From NCBI GenBank assembly GCA_023665365.1, contig JAMPEA010000003.1:26321-90320 (forward strand): DNA of 64,000 bases, written 5' to 3'. The notes below the pieces were generated by a model. That model had not been told where the DNA came from. It searched no databases and saw only the letters and a list, made by a program, of their open reading frames with translations. Positions 1,816-45,794 of the stretch are shown here, one piece after another; the stretch's first letter is position 1, and every line of letters starts with the position of its first letter. The stretch is from Bacillota bacterium. GTDB taxonomy: Bacteria; Bacillota; Clostridia; Christensenellales; CAG-917. The translations under genes were made by a program, and so were the position numbers.

Positions 1816-1912
1816 AACAACAAATTAGCGTATATAATATCTTATAGTATGATTTTTTATAACGCGAGCGCGCGCGTTTTCAGCGTATATATGCTCGCAT
1901 GAGGAGTTTTTT

Positions 1913-2899
1913 ATGATTTTGGTTACGGGAGGAGCAGGCTATATCGGCTCCCATTGCGTGAGAGAGCTCAAAGAACGCGGCATAGGCGTAGTGGTTTACG
2001 ACAATCTTGTCACGGGACATATCGAGTCCGTTCCGTCGGACGTTCCGTTTGTCAAGGGCGACATCTTCGACGTGGAACTTTTGCGAGAGACGTTCAAAAA
2101 GTACGGCGTGGATTCGGTCATTCACTTCGCGGCGTACTCGCTTGTGGGCGAGAGTATGTCAAACCCCGCAAAGTATTATCACAATAATGTCGCAGGCACG
2201 CTCGCGCTCCTCGACGCGATGATTGCCGAGAACGTCAAATATCTGGTGTTCTCCTCATCGGCGGCGACCTACGGCGACTGCGGCGACGGGCTCATCACAG
2301 AGGACAGCCCGCAAAATCCGACGAGCGTCTACGGTCAGACAAAGTTGATGATGGAGCAGTTTATGCAGGATTACGACAAGGCTTACGGGCTTAAATACGT
2401 CGCGCTTCGCTACTTCAACGCGGCGGGTGCGCATAAGAGCGGCGAGATAGGCGAGGCGCACAATCCCGAGTCGCACCTTATCCCTATTATCCTGCAAGTC
2501 GCAAACGGCACGCGCGACCATATCGGCATTTACGGCGACGACTATCCCACGCCCGACGGAACTTGCGTGCGCGACTATATACATATCACCGACCTTGCCG
2601 ACGCGCATATCCGTGCGCTCGACTATTTGAAGAAGGGCGGAAAGTCCACGCACTACAACCTCGGCAACGGCAATGGGTTCAGCGTGAAAGAGGTCATAGA
2701 TATGACCGAAAAGGTCACGGGACTTCAAATCAAGCGCAGCGTCGAGGGTCGTCGCGCGGGAGACCCCGCAACCTTAGTCGCTTCGAGCGAAAAGATAAAG
2801 CGCGAGCTCGGCTGGAAACCCCAATACGACAGCTTGGAGAGCATCATTTCCTCCGCTTGGAAGTGGCACTCCGCTCACAAAAACGGATATAATAAATAA
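1913..2899 (+). CDS. galE: UDP-glucose 4-epimerase
   Basis: 328 aa. Rossmann motif VTGGAGYIGSH and catalytic YGQTK are present. A GAGGAG RBS lies upstream. Confidence 0.95.
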   Translation: MILVTGGAGYIGSHCVRELKERGIGVVVYDNLVTGHIESVPSDVPFVKGDIFDVELLRETFKKYGVDSVIHFAAYSLVGESMSNPAKYYHNNVAGTLALLDAMIAENVKYLVFSSSAATYGDCGDGLITEDSPQNPTSVYGQTKLMMEQFMQDYDKAYGLKYVALRYFNAAGAHKSGEIGEAHNPESHLIPIILQVANGTRDHIGIYGDDYPTPDGTCVRDYIHITDLADAHIRALDYLKKGGKSTHYNLGNGNGFSVKEVIDMTEKVTGLQIKRSVEGRRAGDPATLVASSEKIKRELGWKPQYDSLESIISSAWKWHSAHKNGYNK

Positions 2900-2925
2900 A
2901 ACACAAATCGAGGATTGAGAGGGTT

Positions 2926-3789
2926 ATGAGTGTAAAAAAGGCTATTATTCCGTGCGCCGGCTTCGGCACGAGGTTTTTGCCCGTGACGAAAGTTCTGCCG
3001 AAGGAATTGCTTCCCATTGTGGATACCCCCGCGCTTTCCTATATAGTTGAGGAAGCCGCAACGTCGGGGATTGAGGAGATATTGGTCATCGTTTCTCCGC
3101 AAAAAAAATACATCAAAAATTTGTTTAAGGCGAATAAGCCGTTGAACTCGCTGTTGCTCGAAAAAAAGGACGATAAGAGTTTTGCGCTCGCAAATAAAAA
3201 GTACGACGTAAAAATCAAGTTCGCCGTGCAAAACGTCATGAACGGCAACGGCATGGCGGTGAGGCTCGGCAAGAGCTTTGCAAACGGCGAGCCAGTCGCG
3301 GTGCTTTTCGGCGACGACCTCATGTATACGGGCGATAAAACGCCCGTCACAAAACAGCTTATCGACGCTTATGAAAGCGTGGGCGGCAAGAGTATAGTAG
3401 GGTGTCAGTGTACGTCCGAAGCCGTCGCCCGCAGGTGCGGCGTTATGATTACGGGGAGCGTCGTTTCAGACAAAATCACGGAGATTTCGGGGATAAAGGA
3501 AAAGCCGCAGGACGAGCTCCCGAGCAATCTCGTATCGCTCGGAAGATTTGTGCTTTCGCCGAGCATCTTCGACGCTATCGACTGCGCGCCCCTATCGGAA
3601 AACGGCGAGGTCTATCTCACCGACGCAATCAACCTGCTCGCAAAAACCGAGGGCGTATGCGCGTATGAGTTCGAGGGACGAAGATACGACATAGGCAACA
3701 AAGAGGGCTTTTTGGAAGCTACCGTCGAGTACGCCTTGCGCGATGAAAACTTAAAGGACGAATTCGCCGAGTATCTGCGCACGAGATAA
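2926..3789 (+). CDS. galU: UTP--glucose-1-phosphate uridylyltransferase
   Basis: 287 aa. The N-terminal AIIPCAGFGTRFLPVTKVLPKELLPIVD signature is present. The gene sits directly after galE. Confidence 0.93.
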   Translation: MSVKKAIIPCAGFGTRFLPVTKVLPKELLPIVDTPALSYIVEEAATSGIEEILVIVSPQKKYIKNLFKANKPLNSLLLEKKDDKSFALANKKYDVKIKFAVQNVMNGNGMAVRLGKSFANGEPVAVLFGDDLMYTGDKTPVTKQLIDAYESVGGKSIVGCQCTSEAVARRCGVMITGSVVSDKITEISGIKEKPQDELPSNLVSLGRFVLSPSIFDAIDCAPLSENGEVYLTDAINLLAKTEGVCAYEFEGRRYDIGNKEGFLEATVEYALRDENLKDEFAEYLRTR

Positions 3790-5199: not shown

Positions 5200-7709
5200 T
5201 GTATTCTGAAATCTCCAAAGCTGTGCTGAAAACCGCAAGCGACCTTGCCACGAGGACGGCGGGACTCATCTGTACCGAGCATCTGCTGTACGGGCTTTCG
5301 TGCGCAAACGGCAGCGACGCGCAAAGTCTGCTTACAAAGTGCGGGCTTACGTCAAACGTCTTGCTTACGTATTTCAAATCCACTCCGCCGACCGCCGCGG
5401 TGCGCATGTCGCCAAGAGCCGGCGTTGCGGTGGAGGAGGCGCAGGACGTGGCTATGCGGCTCGGCTCGCAGACGGTCGAACCCGAGCATATCCTCTATAC
5501 CATACTCGAAGACAAAACCTCCGCCGCGTGCGATATAATCCGCGGCATGGGCGTAGACCCCGAGCATTTGCAGAGGCTCACCTACAACGCGATAATAGGC
5601 GGCAATCATCCTTCGGCAAGTACGAACGGAGAGGAGCAGAGAAACGGACATCTCCCTACGCCTCCCTCTCAAACGCGCGGCGATATAAACGACATTTTAA
5701 GCGGATTGAATTATACTCGCTATAATTCCGCGCCCGTCGGCGAGGAGAAAAAGGAAAGCGATTTCGACCTTTTGAAGTTCGGCACGGATTTGACAGCCAA
5801 GGCAAAGGCGGGCAAACTCGACCCCGTTATAGGCAGAGGCAAGGAGACCGAGCGCGTGATACAGGTGCTTTGCCGCCGCACGAAAAATAATCCCGTGCTT
5901 ATAGGCGAACCGGGCGTAGGGAAGTCCGCCGTTATAGACGGGCTTGCGCAGGCAATCGTCGCGGGCGACGTTCCCGACGCGCTTAGGGATAAGATGGTGT
6001 TTTCGCTCGACCTTACCTCGCTTGTCGCAGGCACGAGATACCGCGGCGACTTCGAGGAGCGTTTGAAAACCACGCTCAACGGCATAAAGGAAAGGGGAAA
6101 CGTCATTCTTTTCATAGACGAAATACATACCATTTTAAAGGCGGGTTCGAGCGACGGCGGGCTGGACATAGCAAACGTTTTGAAGCCGATGCTCGCAAGG
6201 GGCGAGTTGCAGACGATAGGCGCGACAACGCTTGAAGAATTTCGCAAGCAGTTTGAGCAAGATAGCGCGTTAGAACGCCGCTTTCAGCCCGTTTTGGTTG
6301 AGGAGCCGACCCCGAGCGAAGCGATTGAAATATTGCAGGGCTTGCGTGAAAAATACGAAAATCACCACGGCGTGACGATAACCGACGAGGCAATTTCTGC
6401 GGCTGTGATACTGTCGGATAGATACGTGACGGATAGGTTTTTGCCCGACAAGGCAATCGACCTCATCGACGAGGCGGCTTCGAGGAAGAAGATTTTCACT
6501 TTTACGACTCCGCAGGAGCTTCGTGACCTCGACGCAAAGATAAAGCAAGCGGATTTGGAACTGCGCGAGGCTACTCGAAAGGAGCAGTTCGACAAGTGCA
6601 TAAAGCTCAAAAAACTGCGCGACGATTATATCGAGCAAAAGCAGAAAGCCGAAATCGCGTGGGAGCAAAAGCGCGAGAGTGTAAGTCTCACCGTCGGCGA
6701 GGAGGAGATTGCCGAGGTCGTCGGAAACTGGACGGGCATTCCCGTCAACAAGATTTCGGGCGGCGAAAGCGAGAAGCTCGCCGCGCTCGAACAGACTTTG
6801 CAAGCGAGAGTTATAGGGCAGGACGAGGCGTGCAGTGCGGTCGCAAGAGCGGTCAAACGCGCTCGCGCAGGACTTAAAGACCCAAAACGTCCCATCGGCT
6901 CGTTTATATTTTTAGGACCGACGGGCGTAGGCAAGACGGAGCTCGCAAAGGCGCTTGCGGGCGCGCTGTTCGGCGACGACGAGATGATTATAAGAGTGGA
7001 TATGTCCGAGTATATGGAAAAGGAAAGCGTATCCCGCCTTATAGGTTCTGCCCCCGGACTCGTCGGCTTCGAGGAGGGCGGACAGCTCACCGAAAAGGTG
7101 CGCAGAAAGCCCTATTCGGTCGTCCTATTCGACGAGATAGAAAAGGGACACTCGGATATATACAATCTGCTTTTGCAAATCCTCGAAGACGGCATTTTGA
7201 CGGATAGCCACGGACGCACCGTCAGCTTTAAAAACACCGTGATAATCTTGACGTCCAATATCGGCGCAAAGGAAGTCGGCGAGACTCGCGCGAGCGTGGG
7301 CTTCGGCGAAAACGTAAACAGCGTGATAGAGAGCGAGTGCGTCAAGGAGCGCCATATCCAAGCGCTTAAAAACTATATGAAACCCGAAATCATCAACCGC
7401 ATAGACGAGGTCGTCGTGTTTGAAAAACTCGGCAAGGAATCGCTTGTGAAGATAGCAAATCTAATGTTTGCGTCCCTTGCAAAGCGCCTTGACGAGCGCG
7501 GCATAAACGTGGAGTTCACGCCCGAGGCAAAGGCATACGTCGTCAACGCGGGCTACGACGCGGAGTACGGGGCAAGACCTCTGCGCCGCACGATACAGCG
7601 CCTCGTTGAGGATAAACTCAGCGAAAAACTCATACTCGGCGAGTTCGGCGAGGGCGATAAAATAAAAATCGATGCTGTCGACGGGGAATTGAATTTTTGT
7701 AGTATTTGA
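5199..7709 (+). CDS. clpC: ATP-dependent Clp protease ATP-binding subunit ClpC
   Basis: 836 aa with a Clp_N repeat region and two AAA+ modules (GEPGVGKSA, GPTGVGKTE). The start overlaps the mcsB stop (TAATG) and a GGAGG RBS is present. Confidence 0.95.
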   Translation: MYSEISKAVLKTASDLATRTAGLICTEHLLYGLSCANGSDAQSLLTKCGLTSNVLLTYFKSTPPTAAVRMSPRAGVAVEEAQDVAMRLGSQTVEPEHILYTILEDKTSAACDIIRGMGVDPEHLQRLTYNAIIGGNHPSASTNGEEQRNGHLPTPPSQTRGDINDILSGLNYTRYNSAPVGEEKKESDFDLLKFGTDLTAKAKAGKLDPVIGRGKETERVIQVLCRRTKNNPVLIGEPGVGKSAVIDGLAQAIVAGDVPDALRDKMVFSLDLTSLVAGTRYRGDFEERLKTTLNGIKERGNVILFIDEIHTILKAGSSDGGLDIANVLKPMLARGELQTIGATTLEEFRKQFEQDSALERRFQPVLVEEPTPSEAIEILQGLREKYENHHGVTITDEAISAAVILSDRYVTDRFLPDKAIDLIDEAASRKKIFTFTTPQELRDLDAKIKQADLELREATRKEQFDKCIKLKKLRDDYIEQKQKAEIAWEQKRESVSLTVGEEEIAEVVGNWTGIPVNKISGGESEKLAALEQTLQARVIGQDEACSAVARAVKRARAGLKDPKRPIGSFIFLGPTGVGKTELAKALAGALFGDDEMIIRVDMSEYMEKESVSRLIGSAPGLVGFEEGGQLTEKVRRKPYSVVLFDEIEKGHSDIYNLLLQILEDGILTDSHGRTVSFKNTVIILTSNIGAKEVGETRASVGFGENVNSVIESECVKERHIQALKNYMKPEIINRIDEVVVFEKLGKESLVKIANLMFASLAKRLDERGINVEFTPEAKAYVVNAGYDAEYGARPLRRTIQRLVEDKLSEKLILGEFGEGDKIKIDAVDGELNFCSI

Positions 7710-14368: not shown

Positions 14369-14947
14369 ATGTACAGTTATATTTCGGGCAAAATTGTAGG
14401 CAAGACTGCAAGCGGAATAGTTGTCGAAAACAACGGAATAGGCTATGATATAGGCGTGAGCGGCAACACGCTTTACGACGTGGATTTGGGCGAGATTGTA
14501 AAAATCTACACCTATTTATACGTGCGCGAGGACGAAATGTCGCTATACGGCTTCTCCCGCGAGGAGGAGAAAAAGCTGTTTTTGCGTCTCATCGACATAA
14601 GCGGGATAGGTCCTAAGATGGCGATGCAGATACTCGGCGGCTACGACCTCAAAACGCTTACCGTCGCTATTGCAAGCGGCGACGTCAAGACGCTTTGCAA
14701 GATAAAGGGACTCGGCAAAAAGACGGCGGAGCTTATCGTGCTCAATCTGCGCGAGGTCGCGGCGGAGGATATAAGCGGCGCGGATGACGGCGTAGGCATA
14801 GCGGGCGACGATATAGCGGACGCGGTGAACGCGCTCGAATCGCTCGGCATTGCAAAAACCGACGCTGTACGCGCGGTCAGCGAAGCGCAAAAATCCGTCA
14901 GCGGAGTTGAAAATATCATTGCATACTGCTTAAAACAGTTGCTTTAA
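14369..14947 (+). CDS. ruvA: Holliday junction branch migration complex subunit RuvA
   Basis: 192 aa. MYSYISGKIV...GIGYDI gives the OB domain, and HhH motifs are present (ISGIGPKMA, IKGLGKKTAE). Confidence 0.93.
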   Translation: MYSYISGKIVGKTASGIVVENNGIGYDIGVSGNTLYDVDLGEIVKIYTYLYVREDEMSLYGFSREEEKKLFLRLIDISGIGPKMAMQILGGYDLKTLTVAIASGDVKTLCKIKGLGKKTAELIVLNLREVAAEDISGADDGVGIAGDDIADAVNALESLGIAKTDAVRAVSEAQKSVSGVENIIAYCLKQLL

Positions 14948-14956
14948 GAGGATATT

Positions 14957-15997
14957 ATGATAAAATCACAGTTTTCAAAAGAGAACGGCGAGGGTTTCGA
15001 CGCAGAAAACAGACTGATGAGCAGTCTGACAATAGAGGAGGACGAGGCGGAAACTTCGCTCAGACCTCATACTATGAGCGAGTACGTAGGGCAGTCCAAA
15101 ATCAAAAAAAACTTGGACGTTTACATAACCGCCGCAAAGGACAGAAAGGACGCGCTCGACCACGTTTTGCTGTACGGACCTCCCGGACTTGGCAAGACTA
15201 CGCTTGCGCATGTTATCGCCTGCGAGCTCGGAGCGCAAATCCGCGTGACGAGCGGCCCCGCAATAGAGCGCGCCGCCGACCTTGCCGCGATACTTACAAA
15301 CCTCGAAAAGGGCGACATTCTGTTTATCGACGAAATCCACCGCCTAAACCGCAATATCGAGGAGGTGCTTTATCCCGCTATGGAGGATTTTTCACTCGAC
15401 TTCGTATCCGGAAAAGGACCTATGGCAAGGAGTATTCGTCTGCCGCTTAAACGCTTTACGCTCATAGGCGCGACCACGAGGGCAGGCATGCTGTCGAGTC
15501 CGCTTCGCGACAGATTCGGCATGATGCTTCGCCTCGAAATGTATACGCCCGAGGAGTTGACAAGCATAGTCACGCGCTCGGCGAGGATACTCGGCATAGC
15601 AATCGAGCCGTCCGCCGCTTTGGAGCTTGCAAAGCGCAGTAGGGGAACGCCGCGTATCGCAAACAGATTGCTTCGCCGCGTGCGCGACTTTGCGCAGTAT
15701 GAAAAACTCGATTGCATAAATCTCGCCGTCACAAAGAAGGCGCTAACGCTTATGGACGTTGACGAGTTGGGGCTTGACATAACCGACCGAACCGTCCTCG
15801 AAGCGATAATCGACAAATTTGCAGGCGGACCCGTCGGGCTTGACACTCTGTCGGCGGCGACGGGCGAGGAGGCATCGACAATAGAGGACGTTGTTGAACC
15901 ATTCCTCATTCAGCTTGGATTTATCACGCGCACTCCGCGAGGCAGAATGTGCACTAAAAACGCCTACGAGCATTTGAATAAGCAATATATAGAGTAG
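14957..15997 (+). CDS. ruvB: Holliday junction DNA helicase RuvB
   Basis: 346 aa with [12 protein letters not shown], Walker [12 protein letters not shown], Walker B FIDEIHRL and sensor GATTRAG. Confidence 0.96.
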
Positions 15998-16076
15998 CGC
16001 ATATACTACGATGAAAACTTCGATTTATACGCAAATCGGGTTTTAAGTGTATAAATTGACAGATAAACTATTGATT

Positions 16077-17117
16077 ATGCAAAACGAACGGAATTTATCC
16101 ACGCACGATTTTTATTACGACCTTCCCGAGGAGCTCATTGCGCAGATTCCCGTCGAGCCGCGCGACAGCTCCCGTCTTTTGGTGTATCTGAAAGAGGAAG
16201 ATAAGATTTTGCATAGGCATTTTTACGACCTGCCCGATTTTTTAAAGAAGGGCGATTTGCTTGTGATAAACAACACGAGGGTAATCCCCGCGCGCATTTT
16301 CGGACATATCGAAAATCACGAAAGCGTGCTTGAAACGCTGCTTCTCAAACGCATAGACTATACGCACTGGGAAACCATTATGAAGCCCGCAAGAAAGGCG
16401 CGTATGGGAAGCGTCATACATTATACCGAGGGGCTGAGCGCAGTCGTCACAAACGTAGGCGAGTACGGCGCGCGCACGATAGAGTTTAAATTCGACGGAG
16501 TGTTTGAGGACATTCTCGACAAGGTGGGCAATATGCCTCTGCCTCCGTATATCAAAGAAAAGCTGCGCGATAAGGAAAGGTATCAGACCGTGTATAGCAA
16601 AATCGACGGGTCTGCCGCCGCGCCTACCGCGGGCTTGCACTTTACGCCCGAGCTGATGAAAAAAATAGAGGATATGGGCGTTGAGTTTGCAAACGTGCTT
16701 TTGCATATCGGGCTTGGCACTTTCCGCCCCGTCAAAGAGGAAAATATCCTCGACCACAAGATGCACACGGAGTACTACGAGATAGACGAGGTTGCCGCCG
16801 ACAAGATAAATAGGGCGGTGCGCGAGGGCAGGCGCGTCATCTGCGTAGGCACTACAAGCGTGCGCACTCTCGAAACCGTCGCCGACGAAAACGGCTACGT
16901 CAAGCCCTGCAAGGGAGAAACGGATATTTTTATATATCCCGGCTACCGCTTCAAGTGCGTCAAGGGGCTTATAACCAACTTCCATCTGCCAGAAAGCACG
17001 CTGATTATGCTTGTGTCGGCGTTTGTCGGCAGAGAAAGAACGCTTGAAATTTACAAAACGGCTGTCGAGGAAAGATACAGATTTTTTTCATTTGGGGATG
17101 CCTGTTTCTTCCAATAA
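16077..17117 (+). CDS. queA: S-adenosylmethionine:tRNA ribosyltransferase-isomerase
   Basis: The track ORF starts with GTG at 16047, but the ATG at 16077 gives MQNERNLSTHDFYYDLPEELIAQ, the typical QueA start. The C-terminal FFSFGDACF motif is present. Confidence 0.94.
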   Translation: MQNERNLSTHDFYYDLPEELIAQIPVEPRDSSRLLVYLKEEDKILHRHFYDLPDFLKKGDLLVINNTRVIPARIFGHIENHESVLETLLLKRIDYTHWETIMKPARKARMGSVIHYTEGLSAVVTNVGEYGARTIEFKFDGVFEDILDKVGNMPLPPYIKEKLRDKERYQTVYSKIDGSAAAPTAGLHFTPELMKKIEDMGVEFANVLLHIGLGTFRPVKEENILDHKMHTEYYEIDEVAADKINRAVREGRRVICVGTTSVRTLETVADENGYVKPCKGETDIFIYPGYRFKCVKGLITNFHLPESTLIMLVSAFVGRERTLEIYKTAVEERYRFFSFGDACFFQ

Positions 17118-29130: not shown

Positions 29131-30423
29131 ATGCGAGAAATAAAAAGGGACTATTATCTTAATCAACTGATAAGTAGGCGTGAAAATGGCGCGGTCAAAA
29201 TCGTAACAGGCGTGCGTAGATGCGGTAAAAGTTATTTGCTGTTTGAGTTGTTTCGCAATTATTTATATCAAAACGGAGTTGATGAAAAACATATCATTGC
29301 TCTTTCGCTCGATGAAGAGAAGAATAGGATATACAGGAATCCCGAGAAACTTAACGCGTATATAGATTCGCAGATAGCGAGTGACAAAGAGCAGTACTAC
29401 GTTTTATTGGATGAAGTTCAGTTTGCTATCGACGACGATGAAATCAGGGGGAAGAGTGCGCCGATTAGGTTGTATGGGGTTCTCAACGGTTTGTTGAGAA
29501 AACGGAACGTTGACATATATATCACAGGGAGCAATTCGAAATTTTTATCATCGGACGTGATGACTGAGTTCCGTGGACGTGGCGATGAAGTGAGGCTTAT
29601 GCCATTGTCATTTGCGGAGTTTATGTCTGTATACGATGGGGATAAACAGGACGGCTATGACGAGTATTCGTTGTATGGCGGATTGCCTTTTGTTTTAACT
29701 AAAAAGACCGATGCCGAAAAAGCGCGCTATTTGCGCGATTTGTTTAAATCAACTTATACTCGGGATGTCGTTGAGCGTTATAAACTAAGAGGAAACAATA
29801 TTTTAGAAAACCTCGTCGATGTGTTGGCTTCCGATATCGGGACATTGACTAATCCGAACAAATTGGCAAATACATTTGTGTCAAACGGTATAAAAACAAA
29901 CGAAAGGACAATAGCATCGTATATAGAATATTTGGAGGATGCATTTATAATAACTAAGGCACAACGATACGATATAAAGGGAAAGAGATATATCGGTTCA
30001 CCGATGAAATATTATTTTTCGGATATGGGTTTACGAAATGCAAGATTAAATTTCAGACAGGTTGAGCCGACGCATTTAATGGAAAATATCATTTATAATG
30101 AACTGCTGGTGCGTGGATATAGTGTTGATGTCGGTATTGTTGAATCGTATAAAACGGACGCTAACAGTCAGAGGGTACTTGTAAGAAATGAGGTGGATTT
30201 CGTTTGTAATATGGGAAGCAAGCGATACTATATCCAATCGGCGTTTTCTATTCCCACCAAAGAAAAAATGCAACAGGAAGAGGCTTCTCTTAATAGGATT
30301 TCCGATTCTTTCAAGAAAATATTGGTTGTACAGGACAGAACAAAGCCATGGTATAACGATAACGGCTATCTTATTATCAACTTATTTGATTTTTTGCTCA
30401 ATCCAAATAGCATGGAAATATAG
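29131..30423 (+). CDS. AAA ATPase, AAA_14 + DUF4143 family
   Basis: 430 aa with Walker A GVRRCGKSYLL, Walker B YVLLDEVQ and the C-terminal module NEVDFVCNMGSKRYYIQSA. The gene is AT-rich relative to flanking hemZ and rpsO. Confidence 0.8.
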   Translation: MREIKRDYYLNQLISRRENGAVKIVTGVRRCGKSYLLFELFRNYLYQNGVDEKHIIALSLDEEKNRIYRNPEKLNAYIDSQIASDKEQYYVLLDEVQFAIDDDEIRGKSAPIRLYGVLNGLLRKRNVDIYITGSNSKFLSSDVMTEFRGRGDEVRLMPLSFAEFMSVYDGDKQDGYDEYSLYGGLPFVLTKKTDAEKARYLRDLFKSTYTRDVVERYKLRGNNILENLVDVLASDIGTLTNPNKLANTFVSNGIKTNERTIASYIEYLEDAFIITKAQRYDIKGKRYIGSPMKYYFSDMGLRNARLNFRQVEPTHLMENIIYNELLVRGYSVDVGIVESYKTDANSQRVLVRNEVDFVCNMGSKRYYIQSAFSIPTKEKMQQEEASLNRISDSFKKILVVQDRTKPWYNDNGYLIINLFDFLLNPNSMEI

Positions 30424-38773: not shown

Positions 38774-40900
38774 ATGGCAACGATAGAATTCGAGTTATTT
38801 AAAGCCGTCAAAAAGGACGATATAAAGGCGTTTGAAGGCTTGATGGAAAGGGCTCAGTGCGGCGCGTACCGACTGGGCAGATTTCCCGTGCTGTCGCTTT
38901 TGTATCTTTATAAGTCGCGCAAAATACTTGCCGAATACGAGGAGAATTTTTTGAAAATCTCCGCCTACGAGGAGCTGCGCGAGCCAATCGAGGTGTCGAA
39001 CAGGTTTTCAAAAAAGGCGGGCAAGTGTCTTAGGCTTTATCTCGACGAGGTAGTATCTCCGCTTGAAATGCTCCTCATTTTGGATAGGACTACGCATTTG
39101 AAGCGCGTGTTCCCAATAGCAAAGCCGTCGTCGGCAATCAGAGGCAGACTGAAAGCTATATATTCCATAAAGTACGCGCTCGGGGTGAGGTTCGCAGGGG
39201 ATGGCATATCGCTCGACAGACGACCGCTAAGCTATCGTGAAAAGAAAAAGTTGTCCACGATATGTATAAGCGCGATTTTGATTATAGCGATTGCAATCGG
39301 CGTACCCGTGACCACCGTCTCGCTTTTGCCGAAGTCTGAGGAAGGCATAGTAAAGACGTTCGAAGATATAAAATTCGGCGAAGATACGCAGTTTACGTTG
39401 AAAAACGACGTGCGCGTGCCCGAGCACTTCGTCGCCGAAAAGATGAACTGCTCGATTGCAGGCAACGGCAAAAAACTCGTTTTAGGCAAGGGCGCGTCGC
39501 TCGGAGAACTCAACGGCACGCTGTCCGATATGACGATAGAAAGCGCGGGCAACCCGATATTCACGTCGTTGACCGTTGCCGCAGAGATAAAAAATGTGAC
39601 GATAAACGTCACCGCCGATGTCACGACGACGGACAGCAGTGCGTTCGTTGCGCTGACAAACTACGGCTTAATTGACGGCGTAACCGTCAATATCAGCGGC
39701 AGTATCAACGCGCTTGCAAAGGCGGATAACGTCGATAACGAAAACCCTGCGGAGCTCGCGTTCGGCGGAATCGTGCAACATAATCACTATAAATACAACA
39801 ATCTCACTGGACAGATTTACAGGAGAGGCGCTGTCACCGATTGCACGGTGAATTACTCCGACTTTACGCTAAGCGGCGAGTCTGCGGCAAACGCGACGTT
39901 CGGCGGAGTAGTCGGACTAAACGATGGATATTTGGAGGATTGCACCGTAAACGGCGAAATAATCGCAGATACCTTTGACTTGGCGGGATTATGCGCTACT
40001 AATAATTTTGGCGTGGTGAATAACGTAAACAACGCAAATCTCGCGCAGACCTCGGCGGGCGAGTGGTATCCCAACACTGCGGGAATAGTCTTAAACAACG
40101 CGTATGGCGTGGAAAACTGCACGAATAACGGCAACGTCTCGGCAATCTCGACCTATGAAATAAGCGGCGAAAACACGGATGAACTCGACACCCGCGACGC
40201 AATAGTTGCAGGAATTGCCTGCATAAATACAAGTCAGATAAGCAAATGCACAAACTTAGGCAACGTCACCGCAAAGGCAAAGGGCATAGCGTACGGCGGA
40301 GGAATATCCGCGCGGTCGTATTCGCGCATAGCGTACTGCTCGTCAAGCGGAAATATCTCGGCAGACGCGCGGACGGTGTACGCAGGCGGAATAATCGCAA
40401 ATAGCGAAGTGACTACTTCCGGACCGTACGTGTACTTCGGCACTGCGGAGTATTGCATAAGCGATGCGACGATAAGCGCTATCGCGCTCGACGACGCGTA
40501 CGTGGGAGGCATTGCGGGTTGCCTCAACGAGCGAGCGTTTACGCAACAGTCCTACGACGAAAACAGAAATCCCGTAGAAACCACCGTTTATTTCGGCGGC
40601 GGTGTGACGAACTGCTATTTTATAGGAGAAAGCGCGTTTGCGGATTTCGGCGCAATCGTAGGCGTGTGCGGCGCAAACATTTACAAAACCAATTCGTACA
40701 GTTCCACTTCGGGCGAGAATTATAAAAATTTGAACGAAAACTTCTATCTGAATAAATTTTCAAAAGCAATCGGGGCGATAGTGAATTCGGACGGCGAATT
40801 TGCCACTGCCGCAGATAAGGGCGCGACCGCGGCAAGCCTCGAATATATCCAAAATTCCGAATATTACAAAGCCATTTTGAGTGAGCTTGCAAGCGATTAG
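38774..40900 (+). CDS. Single-pass membrane protein with extracytoplasmic GLUG-motif repeat (beta-helix-like) domain
   Basis: 708 aa. About 160 aa form an N-terminal helical cytoplasmic domain, followed by a TM helix (LSTICISAILIIAIAIGVPVTTVSLL). At least 8 GLUG-like repeats follow (FGGVVGLNDGYLEDCTVNGEI, AGIVLNNAYGVENCTNNGNVS, VAGIACINTSQISKCTNLGNVTA, YVGGIAGCLNE...). Confidence 0.7.
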   Translation: MATIEFELFKAVKKDDIKAFEGLMERAQCGAYRLGRFPVLSLLYLYKSRKILAEYEENFLKISAYEELREPIEVSNRFSKKAGKCLRLYLDEVVSPLEMLLILDRTTHLKRVFPIAKPSSAIRGRLKAIYSIKYALGVRFAGDGISLDRRPLSYREKKKLSTICISAILIIAIAIGVPVTTVSLLPKSEEGIVKTFEDIKFGEDTQFTLKNDVRVPEHFVAEKMNCSIAGNGKKLVLGKGASLGELNGTLSDMTIESAGNPIFTSLTVAAEIKNVTINVTADVTTTDSSAFVALTNYGLIDGVTVNISGSINALAKADNVDNENPAELAFGGIVQHNHYKYNNLTGQIYRRGAVTDCTVNYSDFTLSGESAANATFGGVVGLNDGYLEDCTVNGEIIADTFDLAGLCATNNFGVVNNVNNANLAQTSAGEWYPNTAGIVLNNAYGVENCTNNGNVSAISTYEISGENTDELDTRDAIVAGIACINTSQISKCTNLGNVTAKAKGIAYGGGISARSYSRIAYCSSSGNISADARTVYAGGIIANSEVTTSGPYVYFGTAEYCISDATISAIALDDAYVGGIAGCLNERAFTQQSYDENRNPVETTVYFGGGVTNCYFIGESAFADFGAIVGVCGANIYKTNSYSSTSGENYKNLNENFYLNKFSKAIGAIVNSDGEFATAADKGATAASLEYIQNSEYYKAILSELASD
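40874..40895 (+). repeat. Direct repeat A, copy 1 (3' end of the GLUG gene)
   Basis: ATTTTGAGTGAGCTTGCAAGCG, identical to 42881-42902. With the three preceding bases, 24/25 positions match. Confidence 0.9.
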
Positions 40901-40920
40901 TCGAAATCAATTCTGCCGAG
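40899..40920 (+). repeat. Direct repeat B, copy 1
   Basis: AGTCGAAATCAATTCTGCCGAG, identical to 42413-42434. The preceding AGCGAT(T)AGTC is also similar. Confidence 0.9.
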
Positions 40921-40940
40921 TATAAATAAATAATCATCGC

Positions 40941-40969
40941 TTGACATATATGAGATGACAAATTATAAT
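40941..40969 (+). promoter_or_regulatory. Perfect-consensus SigA promoter upstream of the cassette ATPase gene
   Basis: TTGACA at 40941-40946, an exactly 17-nt spacer, then TATAAT at 40964-40969. Confidence 0.6.
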
Positions 40970-41058
40970 ATAGAAAAGTATAAATTTTTAAAGTAAATTT
41001 TATTAGAAAAGTGTATTTTTACTATAATTAGTTAATAGTAAAAGTGTTGAGGTGATTG

Positions 41059-42402
41059 ATGCTATATCGTAAAATAGAAAGTTATATAGAAAATTTTTTG
41101 CAGTCGGAAACCAACAAGGTGCTTGTTGTAGACGGAGCGCGGCAGATTGGCAAAACGTATATAATCAGACATGTTGGGAAAAAGTTATTTTCAAACTTTA
41201 TAGAAATAAATCTTCTTCAAGATTATTTGAGCGATAAGCTATTTGCAAATACAAAAACCGTCGATGATTTTTATTTGCAGATGAGTATGATTGCAGGAGA
41301 TAGGATGAAAGACAAAGAAAACACTTTGATTTTCCTTGATGAAATTCAGGCATATCCTCATCTTTTGACGCTTTTGAAATTTTTAAAACAGGATGACAAG
41401 TTCACTTATATATCAAGCGGTTCTTTACTGGGCGTTACGCTTTCAAAGACGACTTCGATACCTATCGGAAGCATTGAAGTTAAACATATGTTCCCTTTGG
41501 ATTTTGAGGAATTTCTTATTGCAAACGGATTTAGCGCGTTTGCGATACAAGGTCTTTATAACAAGTTTGTAAATTTGCAAAGTTTGGATGAGCCTATTCA
41601 TGCAAAACTTATGGATTTATTCAAGAAATATCTTTTAGTAGGCGGCTTGCCTGATGCGGTAAATTCATATTTGGCAGATAAAAACATTGTGAACGTCAGA
41701 ACTATTCAAAACGAAATTCACGAGTATTATGCAATGGATGCCTCTAAATACGACAGCTCGAATAGACTGAAAATACGTAGAATTTACGATATGATTCCGT
41801 CAACTTTGGAAAATAAAAAGAAGCGAATCGTAGTACAGAATATCGAAGAAAAGAAGGGCAAACGTTACTGCGATTATAGAGATGAGTTTGATTATCTTAT
41901 AAATTCCGGAATTGCGCTTGACGTGAATGCAATTTCCACACCTGTTTTTCCTTTGATTGAATCAAGCGGAAAAAATCTTTTGAAATTATATCTTAACGAC
42001 GTAGGAATTTTGACAAATATTCTATATCATCATAACGTGCGAGCGATATTAGACGACCAAAGAAGTATCAATCTTGGCACGGTTTATGAATCCGTTGTGG
42101 CTTCCGAATTAAAGGCACACGGTTTTAAACTTTTCTATTATGATAACAAAGCGAAAGGAGAGGTTGATTATTTGATTGACGATTATGACGAACTATCGGT
42201 CGTTCCAATCGAGGTAAAGTCCGGAAAAGATTACACGGTTCACAGCGCGTTAAATCACTTTATGAAAACTGACGAATATAAAATTAAGAAAGCATACGTT
42301 TTATCCAACGAGAGACAAATCATGGTCAAAAACAAAATTATATATATGCCCATCTATTTCGTAATGTTTTTCGGCTGGGAAAACGTTAATGCGCAGCAGT
42401 AG
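41059..42402 (+). CDS. AAA ATPase, AAA_14 + DUF4143 family with PD-(D/E)xK-like C-terminal motif
   Basis: The ATG at 41059 follows GAGGTG, whereas the track starts one codon earlier at TTG. Walker A is GARQIGKTYII and Walker B is LIFLDEIQ. The C-terminus reads GEVDYLIDD...VPIEVKSGKDY. The gene is strongly AT-rich. Confidence 0.8.
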   Translation: MLYRKIESYIENFLQSETNKVLVVDGARQIGKTYIIRHVGKKLFSNFIEINLLQDYLSDKLFANTKTVDDFYLQMSMIAGDRMKDKENTLIFLDEIQAYPHLLTLLKFLKQDDKFTYISSGSLLGVTLSKTTSIPIGSIEVKHMFPLDFEEFLIANGFSAFAIQGLYNKFVNLQSLDEPIHAKLMDLFKKYLLVGGLPDAVNSYLADKNIVNVRTIQNEIHEYYAMDASKYDSSNRLKIRRIYDMIPSTLENKKKRIVVQNIEEKKGKRYCDYRDEFDYLINSGIALDVNAISTPVFPLIESSGKNLLKLYLNDVGILTNILYHHNVRAILDDQRSINLGTVYESVVASELKAHGFKLFYYDNKAKGEVDYLIDDYDELSVVPIEVKSGKDYTVHSALNHFMKTDEYKIKKAYVLSNERQIMVKNKIIYMPIYFVMFFGWENVNAQQ

Positions 42403-42410
42403 AGCGATAG

Positions 42411-42854
42411 TCAGTCGAAATCAATTCTGCCGAGCACGAAATCAATAGAGCAATCAAGAGCTTTTGCAAGTTTTATGACGTTATCCATTGTGGGCTTGTT
42501 TTTCCCTTTTTGCCAATAATACATTGTGGATTTTGAGATCTCGGTCAATTTTTGCAACTTATATCTGCTTATTTTAAAACGGTCTAATAAGTATAAGAAC
42601 TGTTTGCTAAACGGCGGGTACTCGTGATATGTTTTATCTTTATAGTTATCCTCAAATCCCAGCAAATAGTCCACGGAACAATCGAAATAATCCGCTATTT
42701 TTACGGCGACCTCAATGTCGGGTGTTTGTTTTTCCAATAAATATCTGGAAATAGTAGAACTTCCCAATCCTAACTTTTCCGAAAGCTCGGACTGCTTTAA
42801 ATCATTCTCAATCAATAGTTCTTTTAGCGTATAAACAAAATTCGATAAATACAT
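42411..42854 (-). CDS. XRE-family regulator with two tandem HTH_3 domains
   Basis: 147 aa. HTH 1 is LKQSELSEKLGLGSSTISRYLLEKQTPDIEVAVKIADYFDCSVDYLLG. HTH 2 is ISRYKLQKLTEISKSTMYYWQKGKNKPTMDNVIKLAKALDCSIDFVLG. It is convergent with the ATPase gene. Confidence 0.8.
   Translation of the reverse strand: MYLSNFVYTLKELLIENDLKQSELSEKLGLGSSTISRYLLEKQTPDIEVAVKIADYFDCSVDYLLGFEDNYKDKTYHEYPPFSKQFLYLLDRFKISRYKLQKLTEISKSTMYYWQKGKNKPTMDNVIKLAKALDCSIDFVLGRIDFD
42413..42434 (+). repeat. Direct repeat B, copy 2 (covers the last codons of the dual-HTH XRE gene)
   Basis: AGTCGAAATCAATTCTGCCGAG encodes ...GRIDFD on the minus strand. Confidence 0.9.
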
Positions 42855-42880
42855 TTTTTAATTCCATAAAATGTAATGCT

Positions 42881-42902
42881 ATTTTGAGTGAGCTTGCAAG
42901 CG
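42881..42902 (+). repeat. Direct repeat A, copy 2 (upstream of the dual-HTH XRE gene)
   Basis: ATTTTGAGTGAGCTTGCAAGCG. Confidence 0.9.
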
Positions 42903-42916
42903 TTGCCTTGTGATTT

Positions 42917-42949
42917 GGGGTCCCCGCAAAACGTCCCTGTTTTGTGGGG
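42917..42949 (+). repeat. R1 repeat family hairpin (best copy)
   Basis: GGGGTCCCCGCAAAACGTCCCTGTTTTGTGGGG forms an 11-bp stem (CCCCGCAAAAC/GTTTTGTGGGG, one G-U) with loop GTCCCT. It lies between the XRE cassette and the trkH stop. Confidence 0.85.
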
Positions 42950-42965
42950 TAAATTTGCGCCGATT

Positions 42966-44438
42966 TTATATCCGAGTCCACGATTTAGGCGAGAACATAA
43001 GCAATATCGGCAAAATTTCAAGTCGTCCGAGGAGCATGTCGAGCGATAACACAATCTTCGAGAACGCTCCGTAACCCGCGAAGTTGCCCGCAGGTCCTAC
43101 TGCGCCGAGCCCCGGTCCTATATTGTTAAAGCAGGATATGACCGCGGTGAAATTCGCCTCGAATATGCTTCCCGAAAGATTGGGCGTTTCGATTGATACG
43201 AGCAGGGTGGAGAGCGCAATCAAGATGACGTACAAAATAAAGAAGTTCTTTACGGACGTTATCGTTTCCTCGCCGACGGGCTTTTTGTCTATCTTTATCG
43301 CGTAGACCGAGCGGGGCGAGAGGGTTTTTCTGAGGTTCATAAAGGATGATTTTGATATTATCATAAGCCTTGACACTTTCATTCCGCCCGAGGTCGAGCC
43401 TGCCGAGCCGCCTATCATCATAACTCCGAGCAGTATGACCTGCGACAGCGTAGACCAGCCTGTGAAATCCGCCGTGCCGAAGCCCGTAGTGGACATGACC
43501 GAGGCTATGTTGAAACTGCTGTATCTAAGCGCTTCGCCCACGCTTGCGTAGGTATGTCGCAGGCACAAATCTAGCGTCACGGCGAATAAGGCGACGAAGT
43601 ATATGATAAACATACAGCGGAGTTCCTCGCTTTTAATCGCCTTTGTGAATTGTCCGATGAGTATCATAAAATAGATGTTGAAGTTGACTGAAAAGATAAT
43701 CATAAAGATTGTCAAAACGACCTCTATGCTTATCGAGTTATATGCCGCAATACTTGCGTTTTTCACGGAAAAACCGCCTGTTGACGCCGTCGAAAACGCG
43801 TGGCAGAAGCTGTCGAAAACGGGCATCTTGCAGGCGCAGAGGATAACTACGAGCAAAAGCGTCAGCGCAATGTATATCGCATACAGTATGCGCGAGGTGA
43901 AGCGCAGTTTGCTTACAAGTTTTCCGAACTGCGGTCCGGGGATTTCCGCTTTGGCGAGCGCGGTTGACATTTTGTCGCTGCTGGGGAGTATGGCTATTGC
44001 AAACACGAGTACGCCCATTCCGCCGAGCCACTGCGTGAGCGCGCGCCAAAACAGCAGGGATTTGGGCATAATTTCCACGTTTGTGAGGATGCTCGAACCA
44101 GTCGTTGTGAAGCCCGATATAGTCTCAAACAGTGCGTCTACGTAGCTCGGAATTGCGCCCGATATACAGTAGGGCATCGCGCCTATGAGCGAGATGATTA
44201 TCCATACGAGTCCGCATATGGCAAAGCCGCTTGACGGACGCAGGTCGCGCTTATCCTTTGGCGGGCGCAGGGCAAGCCCGATGCCGCCGAGCGCGACGCA
44301 GACCGCTATCGCTATGCCGTACGCCGCTATGGTGTGACTCTCGTGATAGCCGAGCGCCATAAAGAGCGGGATGCACATAAGCGCTCCCATAAGCACACAT
44401 ATTTCTCCGAATACAAATGCGATAAGTCGATAATTCAT
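42966..44438 (-). CDS. trkH: Potassium uptake protein TrkH (Trk/Ktr family membrane subunit)
   Basis: 490 aa and polytopic, with repeated selectivity-filter-like motifs (SGFTTTGSS, STASTGGFS, MSTTGFGTAD, GGSAGSTSGGMK). Confidence 0.9.
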   Translation of the reverse strand: MNYRLIAFVFGEICVLMGALMCIPLFMALGYHESHTIAAYGIAIAVCVALGGIGLALRPPKDKRDLRPSSGFAICGLVWIIISLIGAMPYCISGAIPSYVDALFETISGFTTTGSSILTNVEIMPKSLLFWRALTQWLGGMGVLVFAIAILPSSDKMSTALAKAEIPGPQFGKLVSKLRFTSRILYAIYIALTLLLVVILCACKMPVFDSFCHAFSTASTGGFSVKNASIAAYNSISIEVVLTIFMIIFSVNFNIYFMILIGQFTKAIKSEELRCMFIIYFVALFAVTLDLCLRHTYASVGEALRYSSFNIASVMSTTGFGTADFTGWSTLSQVILLGVMMIGGSAGSTSGGMKVSRLMIISKSSFMNLRKTLSPRSVYAIKIDKKPVGEETITSVKNFFILYVILIALSTLLVSIETPNLSGSIFEANFTAVISCFNNIGPGLGAVGPAGNFAGYGAFSKIVLSLDMLLGRLEILPILLMFSPKSWTRI

Positions 44439-44441
44439 AGC

Positions 44442-45794
44442 TTACAAATCAAGTATATCGTTGAGGTTTGCCAACGTAGTATCTTTGGTGACGATAATCA
44501 CGTTGTCGTCTTTTTCGATTGTGTCCTGTCCGGACGGGGTGATAAGCGTGCCGCCGCGAATTATGCCCGCAACGAGCAGGTGTTTTTTGAGCTCCATATC
44601 TCTGATTGCAACGCCGAATTTTTTGAAGCTGTCCGTCGCGCGGAATTCCAAAACTTCGGTCGTGTGGTCGATAATCTGAAATATGCGCTGGACGGATTCG
44701 CTTTCCTTGTTGCCGATGATGCGAACGAAGCGGATAATTTGGTCGGCGGTGGAGTTCTTTGTGGATACTGCGCTGTAAATGCCGCTTTTTTGCAACATAT
44801 CGTAGTAGCTGAGTTGGTCTATCTTTGTGATGACCTTCGGTACGTCGTGGGAGGCGGCGAACATACTCATAATGATATTTTGCTCGTCGAGACTGCTCAA
44901 CGCGACGAACGCGTCGGTGTGGTCAAGCCCCTCGTCAATCAAAAGCTGTTGGTCGGTGCCGTCGCCGCAGAGTATTTCAGTCTTATCCAAAACCTCCGCA
45001 AGAGAGGTGCATCTCTTCTTATTTTTTTCGATGACTTTTGCGTGTATTCCCGCGCGTTCGAGCTGTTCGCAGAGATAGAACGCCGTGCGCGAGCCGCCTA
45101 CAATCATAACGTTGCGCGCTTGTTTATTCCACCCGAGTTGCTTGAAGAACGCGGTGATATTTCTCGTAGTCGCGGTGAGGAATAGCCTGTCCTCCGCCTC
45201 TATCGCAAAATTGCCCGTGGGAATGATTGCCTTGCCGTCGCGCTGAACCGCGCATATAAGCACCTTGGCTTTAAACGACTTGCCGAGGTCTTTAAGCGAT
45301 ATTCCGACGAGAGGGGAGTTTTCGTCTACGCGGAACTCCACCAGCTCGACCTTGCCTCTGCTGAAATTGTTGACGGTGATTGCCGAGGGGAAGCGGAGCA
45401 TTCGGCTGATTTCCATTGCCGCTTCGTACTGCGGGTTGACCATAAGGCTAAGCCCCAAATCGCCCTCGTTTTTGAAAAGTTCGAGATATTCGGGCTTGGA
45501 AGCTCGCGCAATCGTCTTTTTTACGCCGAGCTTGTTTGCTATGATACAGCAAAGTATATTCAACTCGTCGTCGGAGGTGGACGCGATAAGCAAATCCGCA
45601 GAGCCTACGCGCGCTTCCTTTAAAACCTCGCTGCTTGCGCAGTTGCCTATGACTCCCTTGACGTCGCAGGAGTTGATTGCGTCTTCGATTTTTTGGCTGT
45701 TTGAGTCGATGACTACTATGTTGTGACCCTCTTTCGAGAGCTGGTTCATAAGCGTAGTGCCGACCGAGCCGAGACCTGAAATGATGATATCCAT
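44442..45794 (-). CDS. trkA: Trk system potassium uptake protein TrkA (two RCK modules)
   Basis: 450 aa with two Rossmann starts (MDIIISGLGSVGTTL, VMIVGGSRTAFYL), each followed by an RCK_C-like domain. It lies immediately upstream of trkH. Confidence 0.92.
   Translation of the reverse strand: MDIIISGLGSVGTTLMNQLSKEGHNIVVIDSNSQKIEDAINSCDVKGVIGNCASSEVLKEARVGSADLLIASTSDDELNILCCIIANKLGVKKTIARASKPEYLELFKNEGDLGLSLMVNPQYEAAMEISRMLRFPSAITVNNFSRGKVELVEFRVDENSPLVGISLKDLGKSFKAKVLICAVQRDGKAIIPTGNFAIEAEDRLFLTATTRNITAFFKQLGWNKQARNVMIVGGSRTAFYLCEQLERAGIHAKVIEKNKKRCTSLAEVLDKTEILCGDGTDQQLLIDEGLDHTDAFVALSSLDEQNIIMSMFAASHDVPKVITKIDQLSYYDMLQKSGIYSAVSTKNSTADQIIRFVRIIGNKESESVQRIFQIIDHTTEVLEFRATDSFKKFGVAIRDMELKKHLLVAGIIRGGTLITPSGQDTIEKDDNVIIVTKDTTLANLNDILDL

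Follow-up and report, generated by a model that had tools for sequence, protein, structure and literature searches.

The 64,000-nucleotide (nt) stretch of DNA analyzed here, called the window in what follows, corresponds to C33:26321-90320 of a 58-contig, 1.59-Mb draft genome. Its segment 40896-42880 is accessory DNA, foreign and nested, which lies at the 3' end of a GLUG-like surface-protein gene and carries the gene of a PDC-S01-type ATPase and that of an XRE-family regulator. Direct reading of the window gives the order of the parts as A-B-[ATPase]-B-[XRE]-A, where A and B are two different direct repeats of 22 nt. The explanation that we favor, and regard as fairly probable, is that two nested recombinase-free insertions took place, each hitting the final codons of a gene and duplicating its target. 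The parts are listed below with their coordinates in the window.

38774..40900, plus strand: GLUG-like surface-protein gene, an open reading frame (ORF) that now ends ...ILSELASD* and has homologues at 37-62% identity.
40853..40873, plus strand: stretch before the first copy of A (A1), which in pairwise comparison resembles the 21 nt before the second copy (A2) at 13/21 positions.
40874..40895, plus strand: A1, native GLUG codons 701-707 (ILSELAS) and 1 nt more, with its homologous counterpart at the 3' end of the corresponding gene of a sister species.
40896..40898, no strand: 3-nt joint ATT, read directly.
40899..40920, minus strand: B1, detached copy of the final 7 XRE codons (LGRIDFD), with the private codons ATT, TTC and GAC common to B2.
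40921..42412, plus strand: ATPase module of 1492 nt, recognized by Pfam (AAA_14 and DUF4143), by PADLOC (PDC-S01) and by its promoter.
41059-42402, plus strand: ATPase ORF (TTG at 41056 is a possible start), with 10 nt of the module after the stop.
42413..42434, minus strand: B2, 3' end of the intact XRE gene, an exact 22-mer match to B1.
42411..42854, minus strand: XRE-family regulator of 147 amino acids (aa) with two HTH_3 domains (Pfam).
42855..42880, minus strand: XRE leader of 26 nt with AATTCC, which reads GGAATT on the coding strand and is a likely ribosome-binding site.
42881..42902, plus strand: A2, displaced copy of GLUG codons, an exact 22-mer match to A1.
42903..42913, plus strand: TTGCCTTGTGA, the presumed original GLUG end (VAL*), read directly.

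The two 22-mers, A (ATTTTGAGTGAGCTTGCAAGCG) and B (AGTCGAAATCAATTCTGCCGAG), and the layout that they delimit had been pointed out in a sequence-only reading of the window, and we could confirm both. With three mismatches allowed, each repeat has exactly two matches in the window (none expected, from 100 shuffles) and exactly two copies in the whole genome, so that the other copies of the two cores for which that reading advised a search do not occur. A and B are unrelated in sequence and have no motif in common, and thus they are not the att cores of one system. A continues leftwards to 43 nt at 81% identity, with 13/21 matching positions beyond the exact part, a score that none of the 2079 other 21-mers of the GLUG gene reached, while B reaches 24 nt with a single mismatch, which is that of the stop codon (TAA versus TGA). 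The original duplication of A may have measured ~43 nt, and the ribosome-binding site GGAATT of the XRE gene, which falls inside the weak extension, may derive from GLUG codons. Since A extends that far, little can be built on the equality of the two exact lengths, which is probably a coincidence. The decay of A is uneven, with 42860-42880 matching 40853-40873 at only those 13 positions next to 22 perfect nt, and selection on the XRE leader is one possible cause.

Comparison with the respective gene families indicates that both repeats originate from the targets. In particular, A encodes ILSELAS, of which ILSEL fits the C-terminal YKAIL..L of the GLUG family; in all homologues, ...YK(A/S)IL..L precedes a short terminal tail that varies, and the DNA of a sister species (helicase 81% and GLUG 62% identical) aligns through A. 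From this family end and this alignment it follows that A1 is native and that A2, together with the tail TTGCCTTGTGA, is the displaced gene end. The same two observations led us to reject A as a spacer of an XRE tandem array. B2, in turn, comprises the 7 codons with which the XRE ORF ends (LGRIDFD, then TGA), and B1 encodes the same peptide followed by TAA. The earlier description of B2 as the XRE 3' end (GRIDFD*) and of B1 as its detached duplicate is therefore borne out by direct reading. The codons ATT, TTC and GAC of GRIDFD occur in both copies, whereas all relatives have GRVDF written with other codons; the presence of private codons in B1 and B2 alike makes B1 a recent copy of the end of this very XRE gene, and its origin as an old paralogue unlikely. 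With A native to the GLUG-like gene and B native to the XRE gene, both repeats thus appear to be target derived.

The joints agree in keeping the two target genes open, because the ends of the inserts supply new stop codons. The present GLUG stop TAG (40898-40900) is made up of the joint ATT and the first bases of B1, and on the opposite strand of the same joint lies the TAA stop of the B1 relic (40899-40897), which is presumably the original XRE stop. Of the present XRE stop TGA, two bases are the final two of the ATPase insert and one is the first base of B2. Furthermore, joining 40895 to 42903 gives ...GCA AGC GTT GCC TTG TGA, with which, as had been predicted, the GLUG reading frame ends in ILSELASVAL*, and a hairpin (42917-42950) begins 3 nt later.

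Inside the segment the G+C content (GC) is 0.27-0.38, compared to ~0.5 in the flanks. No integrase or transposase domain was found there with Pfam, which returned only AAA_14 with DUF4143 and two HTH_3 domains, and the AT-rich, integrase- and transposase-free interior noticed before is thereby confirmed. Mobility genes are absent in and beside the insert according to Pfam, the neighbors being the GLUG operon and trkAH, and no recombinase occurs within the 11-kb contig shared with a second assembly. No inverted repeats are present at either pair of insert boundaries in the window, and a search of 40700-43100 against Rfam was negative.

The inner unit is a complete and self-contained transcription unit, with its own promoter and a single gene. 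The encoded ATPase matches PF13173 (AAA_14, 1.3e-23) and PF13635 (DUF4143, 6.4e-20) in Pfam and, over its full length, PDC-S01 in PADLOC (PDLC04792, E value of 4.3e-180, residues 2-443). In its translation we could read a Walker A motif (GARQIGKT), a Walker B motif (FLDEIQ) and D...EVK, as well as the nuclease-type motif GEVDYLI...IEVKSG; DUF4143 has been classed in the PD-(D/E)XK nuclease superfamily (PMC3424549). A perfect promoter, TTGACA-17-TATAAT, lies at 40941-40969, and the module also has three boxes 33 nt apart. The GC of the module is ~0.34. Relatives at 75-91% aa identity occur on very numerous contigs, some of them labeled Lachnospiraceae, Agathobacter or Monoglobaceae, and relatives at 61-67% on Segatella/Prevotella replicons; homology at the DNA level (~79%) to copies in three unrelated contigs spans 40963-42382, from the -35 box to the last codons only. 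The contexts of other copies include a DprA-like trio, an integrase with a Mob_Pre relaxase, and multiple copies of the gene, and the number of DUF4143 genes varies from 0 to 11 per genome in the genus and goes up to 17 in the class. These comparisons show the module to be foreign and promiscuous or mobile. A search of viral contigs found no relative, and PDB sequences gave no match.

A regulatory role of the XRE protein over the ATPase gene was considered and is not supported: other copies of the module carry the same 33-nt-spaced boxes and no XRE gene, and since the boxes travel with the module in such contexts, the XRE of the window is not its regulator. In another genome (G029, locus L032, 6544-6656), repeats 33-34 nt apart (TTTCATTGACTT) stand upstream of the ATPase homologue, in the position that the GAAAAGTGT boxes occupy in the module of the window. 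A further AAA_14/DUF4143-type paralogue is found in the window at 29131-30423, without flanking repeats. At another locus (L034), a 1.7-kb ATPase module is duplicated (1697-3349 and 5658-7352, 95.5% identity) around the trio that includes the DprA-like gene; the duplicated part extends from 303 nt before the start codon to 15 nt after the stop codon, and a third, inverted DUF4143 gene follows.

PDC-S01 has been reported as the fourth most common defense candidate, very abundant and transferred across domains, combining an ATPase with a PD-(D/E)XK nuclease; validation is pending for most PDC families and none is reported for PDC-S01, which makes it a candidate defense gene only (PMC12988326). 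COG1373, to which PDC-S01 corresponds, is listed among the genes shared between gut genera (PMC10782964). The literature searched gave no account of how PDC-S01 moves or of flanking duplications.

Different from the inner unit, the outer one is an almost bare reading frame. The XRE protein has two HTH_3 stretches (E value of 3.8e-24, Pfam), and the alignment of its family shows a conserved C terminus, SIDFVxGRVDF(D/E). Members of the family often form tandem arrays of two to four paralogues, accompanied by truncated relics and by a small divergent partner gene, and the two-HTH family is expanded in metagenome-assembled genomes of the Christensenellales type (80 loci, L059-L138). The nearest homologue (69% aa and 72% nt identity) belongs to a sister species, the nearest relative (LysS 90% and GreA 96% identical), where its neighbors at the greA-lysS locus are a 61-aa partner gene and an operator region. 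The two copies are homologous at the nucleotide level from the ATG to 4 nt before the stop, that is, over the ORF only, and the copy in the window has neither the partner gene nor the operator. No promoter-like site was found in 42855-42965, and the gene is probably read through from trkAH.

Direct repeats are not peculiar to this copy of the ATPase gene. Nine DUF4143 matches occur in the genome, and seven of the genes have usable flanks; 3/7 are bracketed by direct repeats (22, 47 and 124 nt), compared to 4 of 416 other ORFs of 300-600 aa that reach the same score, all four at hairpins of the repetitive extragenic palindromic (REP) type or at terminator hairpins. Repeats were also found at 4/27 ATPase loci of the genus (56 to >160 nt) and at 4/21 loci of a class-wide sample, with 4/157 among control ORFs from other Christensenellales loci. 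Pooled, 11/55 ATPase genes and 8/573 control ORFs are flanked by repeats, which are thus ~14 times commoner around the former (Fisher's test, p = 4e-8), and the excess is family-wide. The repeats of the family are unrelated in sequence and range from 22 to ~170 nt in length.

Two further cases in the same genome illustrate the arrangement. The ATPase gene C12:14905-16107 lies within a 124-nt direct repeat of 96% identity (span 14641-16244), the upstream copy of which is the 3' end of an SLOG/YoqJ-like gene, while the downstream, orphan copy is followed by the terminator hairpin of that gene. The gene C33:110761-111954, ~20 kb beyond the end of the window, has exact 47-nt repeats (span 110706-112008), and here the 5' leader of the gene itself, immediately behind a TTGACT-17-TACAAT promoter, forms the upstream repeat. 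In all three cases of this genome the downstream copy starts 7-14 nt after the ATPase stop. A conserved right-end motif was tried and rejected, since GCGATAG was seen in three cases but a GATAG-type sequence at only 6/61 ends; no B-like sequence was found beside other ATPase modules. In a related genome (L146, G062:C4, 5200-7322), the 3' end of a GntR gene is present twice, as a direct repeat of 214 nt at 95% identity, and between the copies lie the gene of a GNAT acetyltransferase, a fragment of a transporter, and the promoter with the first 27 codons of a DUF4143 ATPase gene that has decayed; its sister genome G029 has both the ATPase gene and the GntR gene in intact form.

It is possible to propose the following course of events. 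An XRE reading frame, from a family specific to Christensenellales, would have entered the end of the GLUG-like gene and come to lie between the two copies of A; a PDC-S01 unit would then have entered the last seven codons of the XRE gene, between the copies of B. The insertion events themselves would create the repeats, by a route that would be neither site specific nor dependent on a recombinase borne by the insert. Such a route could be a widely staggered break to which a foreign fragment is joined before fill-in, or a switch of replication template that re-enters the target upstream of the point of exit; AGTC|AGTC at the right ATPase joint is a possible 4-nt microhomology and weak evidence. 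The order of events, the empty site and the molecular route are what we infer. The order with XRE first is the parsimonious one; alternatively, the ATPase unit inserted into the XRE gene elsewhere and the composite then entered the GLUG gene, and either order requires two events that share one boundary, at the XRE stop.

The choice of a duplicative, non-site-specific insertion follows from two considerations. The repeats are unrelated, unique and variable in length, which makes site-specific integration unlikely, and in a Campbell-type integration the private 22 nt of this XRE gene would already have to be present on the incoming circle, which only moves the question of their origin one step back. 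The sequence-only reading had proposed two successive insertions, site specific or driven by microhomology, with XRE first, or else a single cassette with ends produced by recombination between att-like cores. Its nested insertions and their parsimonious order are retained, whereas the site-specific part and the att-like cores are not supported, as A and B have no common motif, occur nowhere else in the genome and have no counterpart of B beside other modules. That reading was thus partly right, and the feature is best described as a nested instance of recombinase-free gene gain with target duplication. Taken together with the repeats of its relatives, it suggests that the ATPase family spreads without a recombinase of its own, in a manner described so far only for restriction-modification (RM) genes.

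Several observations weigh against this explanation. Neither the empty site nor the intermediate A-B-XRE-A form, for which a search had been advised, was found in the relatives and metagenomes searched; exact-protein look-ups of GLUG, TrkH and XRE returned the identical arrangement in one other assembly or nothing, and the nearest GLUG homologue is only 59-62% identical. Four close ATPase homologues (L034, L035, L037 and G029) have no flanking repeat of at least 13 nt, and ~80% of the family members tested lack flanking repeats. The exact 22-nt repeats are shorter than the 30-bp threshold of published work, and no molecular mechanism has been demonstrated for such an insertion with any cargo. 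Moreover, other species of the genus have an XRE gene of the same family immediately behind trkH, and part of the arrangement might accordingly be inherited instead of inserted. As for the searches themselves, the metagenome scan gave no match for A and one chance match for B, inside a YebC-type gene, and with regard to empty sites of the sister cases, the left-flank gene in G030 and the SLOG-like gene of C12 have no close orthologue in the genus.

The position behind trkH calls for some attention in this respect. Other species of the genus have a small gene and then one or three XRE copies behind trkA-trkH, and the content of this position varies across the genus, which makes it a variable spot where the XRE gene beside trkH may be partly inherited; the site is either a hotspot or partly ancestral. 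Inheritance of the XRE gene has low odds, given the GLUG-derived piece between trkH and XRE, the identity of only 60-61% with the trkH-linked copies, and the adjacency of GLUG and trkH, which was found, in the genus comparison, in this genome only. The variation behind trkH was seen at four loci of the genus (L025 in G023, L026 in G025, L045 and L051): in one species a DNA methyltransferase and an endonuclease (a restriction-modification pair) occupy this position, in the others a single XRE gene or three in tandem, along with a divergent partner of 62 aa. At all four loci, two ABC-transporter genes, TetR and ClpB come next, the same in each case.

Among the rival explanations, the one that would change the picture most is that PDC-S01 is itself a one-gene mobile element, whose AAA+ ATPase/PD-(D/E)xK nuclease makes staggered breaks and hence long, variable duplications, so that both footprints would be due to the same enzyme; the ATPase unit would then have entered the XRE gene elsewhere, producing B, and the composite B1-ATPase-B2-XRE would have entered the GLUG gene, producing A. 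The repeat excess specific to this ATPase family speaks for it, as do the patchy and often high copy number already given, the minimal module with a downstream repeat 7-14 nt after the stop in 3/3 own-genome cases, the recent 1.7-kb duplicate of L034 that ends 15 nt after the stop, the equal exact length of both duplications in the window, and the nuclease-type motif with the assignment of DUF4143 to the PD-(D/E)XK superfamily (PMC3424549). We nonetheless hold it to be unlikely: repeats of 22 to ~170 nt have no fixed stagger, terminal inverted repeats and a conserved end motif are missing, close homologues lack repeats, the 43-nt extension of A weakens the argument from equal lengths, and Pfam found no DDE or other strand-transfer domain. 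Slightly less probable still is integration in trans, in which A and B would be att cores of integrase-less elements akin to cis-mobilizable elements (CIMEs), served by recombinases encoded elsewhere. In its favor, att sites typically show direct repeats at the 3' ends of genes, the similarity that surrounds A up to 43 nt resembles that between attP and attB, the genome encodes four to five tyrosine and three serine recombinases elsewhere, none of them linked, one ATPase homologue adjoins an integrase and a Mob_Pre relaxase, and islets linked to tRNA genes with 21-25-nt repeats exist in the same genome; but A and B have no relation to each other and neither recurs elsewhere in the genome, nothing like B accompanies other ATPase modules, the repeats of other family members differ in sequence and length, and the shared 11-kb contig has no recombinase.

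A history of rearrangement scars, in which XRE is an ancestral neighbor of trkH, B1 the remnant of a tandem XRE copy replaced by the ATPase, and the copies of A a product of the joining of the GLUG operon, would account for the trkA-trkH-(small gene)-XRE order with one or three copies in other species of the genus, and it would fit the frequent tandem arrays of two to four copies with partial relics, the identical 19-21-nt 3' ends of array members and the GLUG-trkH adjacency specific to this genome. It is improbable in our view, as B1 with the private codons of B2 would require a very recent duplicate, the GLUG-derived piece (A2 and its tail) between trkH and XRE stays unexplained, the partner gene and operator present in all relatives are missing here, and the nearest XRE (69% aa) lies at a different locus, the trkH-linked copies having 60-61%. 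Finally, an assembly artifact, through a chimeric join or a duplicated k-mer overlap, had been named as a possible refutation. The genome is a 58-contig draft, and 22 equals 21 + 1, 21 being the word size of some assemblers. However, an identical stretch of 11.2 kb (100%) is present in a second assembly, GCA_023666605.1, with different contig boundaries, which makes a chance assembly error unlikely; the repeats are 2.0 and 1.5 kb apart, both pairs lie well away from the ends of the contig, the two target ORFs stay open across the joints, and the footprint recurs in other genomes, so that we regard this possibility as very improbable.

The features on the right side of the insert are the following.

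42917..42950, no strand: GGGGTCCCCGCAAAACGTCCCTGTTTTGTGGGGT, a REP-like hairpin in the space where the GLUG and trkH genes converge, one of 52 copies in the genome.
42966..44438, minus strand: trkH (Pfam), with 68-87% aa identity within the genus.
44442-45794, minus strand: trkA (Pfam), which precedes trkH; trkAH is the conserved right flank.

On the left side, the GLUG gene is the last of a conserved operon (RF1-like, UvrD-like, coiled-coil and GLUG), the gene order of which is kept in a sister species. The REP-like hairpin family (GGGGTCCCC-stem-loop-GGGGT), represented by the copy in the window and 51 others, has several sequence variants, often occurs in clusters of two to four units at gene ends and contig ends, and is also present in relatives. 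We considered and rejected TTGCCTTGTGA as part of this dispersed repeat, because the 52 copies have unrelated left flanks. Elsewhere in the genome, three islets of low GC lie beside tRNA genes (C24:1478-4203, Glu; C29:429-2606, Arg; C37:2397-3837, Ser), bracketed by repeats of 21-25 nt or longer, with an integrase in that of C24 only, and C55:1300-4600 contains a clustered regularly interspaced short palindromic repeats (CRISPR) array whose repeat of 36 nt (GTTTTCATTCCTTATTAAACTACATTGCTCTCAAAC) recurs with a period of 66 nt.

What is of wider interest is the ATPase family more than this single locus. PDC-S01 is among the most abundant uncharacterized families in the catalogues of prokaryotic "defense" genes, and its spread is not described in the literature searched. 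To this the locus adds a clean, doubly nested example of recombinase-free gene gain, and it extends insertion with long target duplication, a little-studied process, from RM genes to another nuclease-bearing family. It also raises the question of whether the encoded nuclease drives its own insertion or whether host repair captures such genes; in the unlikely event that the former holds, PDC-S01 genes may be, or include, autonomous mobile elements. In practical terms, a gene end that recurs immediately after a DUF4143 gene can serve as a marker that flags recent gains and losses in metagenomes.

Compared to known systems, the arrangement departs from transposons and insertion sequences in having neither terminal inverted repeats nor a transposase domain, and in the repeat lengths of the family, which are not fixed. 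It resembles integron cassettes in its small single-gene units and in the promoterless XRE gene, read from outside; different from cassettes, its ends have no attC-like imperfect inverted repeat, its repeats are target duplications, the ATPase gene has a promoter, and the 11-kb contig has no integrase gene, attI and IntI not having been searched for specifically. With CIMEs and other elements that integrate at gene 3' ends it shares repeats around a recombinase-less cargo and the restoration of the reading frame, but those elements use one conserved att core and a known integrase family, whereas each repeat of the window is different and unique. The ATPase itself agrees with PDC-S01 over its full length, with both Pfam domains, AAA_14 at the N terminus and DUF4143 at the C terminus, in a single gene with its own promoter.

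The closest published concept is insertion with long target duplication, described for RM gene complexes (Furuta, Abe and Kobayashi 2010, PMC2853133, where Nobusato et al. 2000 is cited for the same concept). The published cases have unique repeats of 45-47 bp and longer, variable in length and often overlapping gene 3' ends, around low-GC inserts without mobility genes; the duplication is defined operationally as longer than 30 bp, and they rest on a genome with the empty site (PMC2853133). In the window, different from those cases, a PDC-S01 ATPase-nuclease and a regulator ORF make up the cargo in place of restriction and modification genes, the exact repeats of 22 nt fall below the 30-bp cutoff, two events are nested, and the origin of the repeats from the target is deduced from the comparison of gene families instead of an empty site. 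What the window has in common with them is the low GC, the absence of a mobility gene, the unique and seemingly target-derived repeats, of a length that differs between cases, and the position at gene 3' ends.

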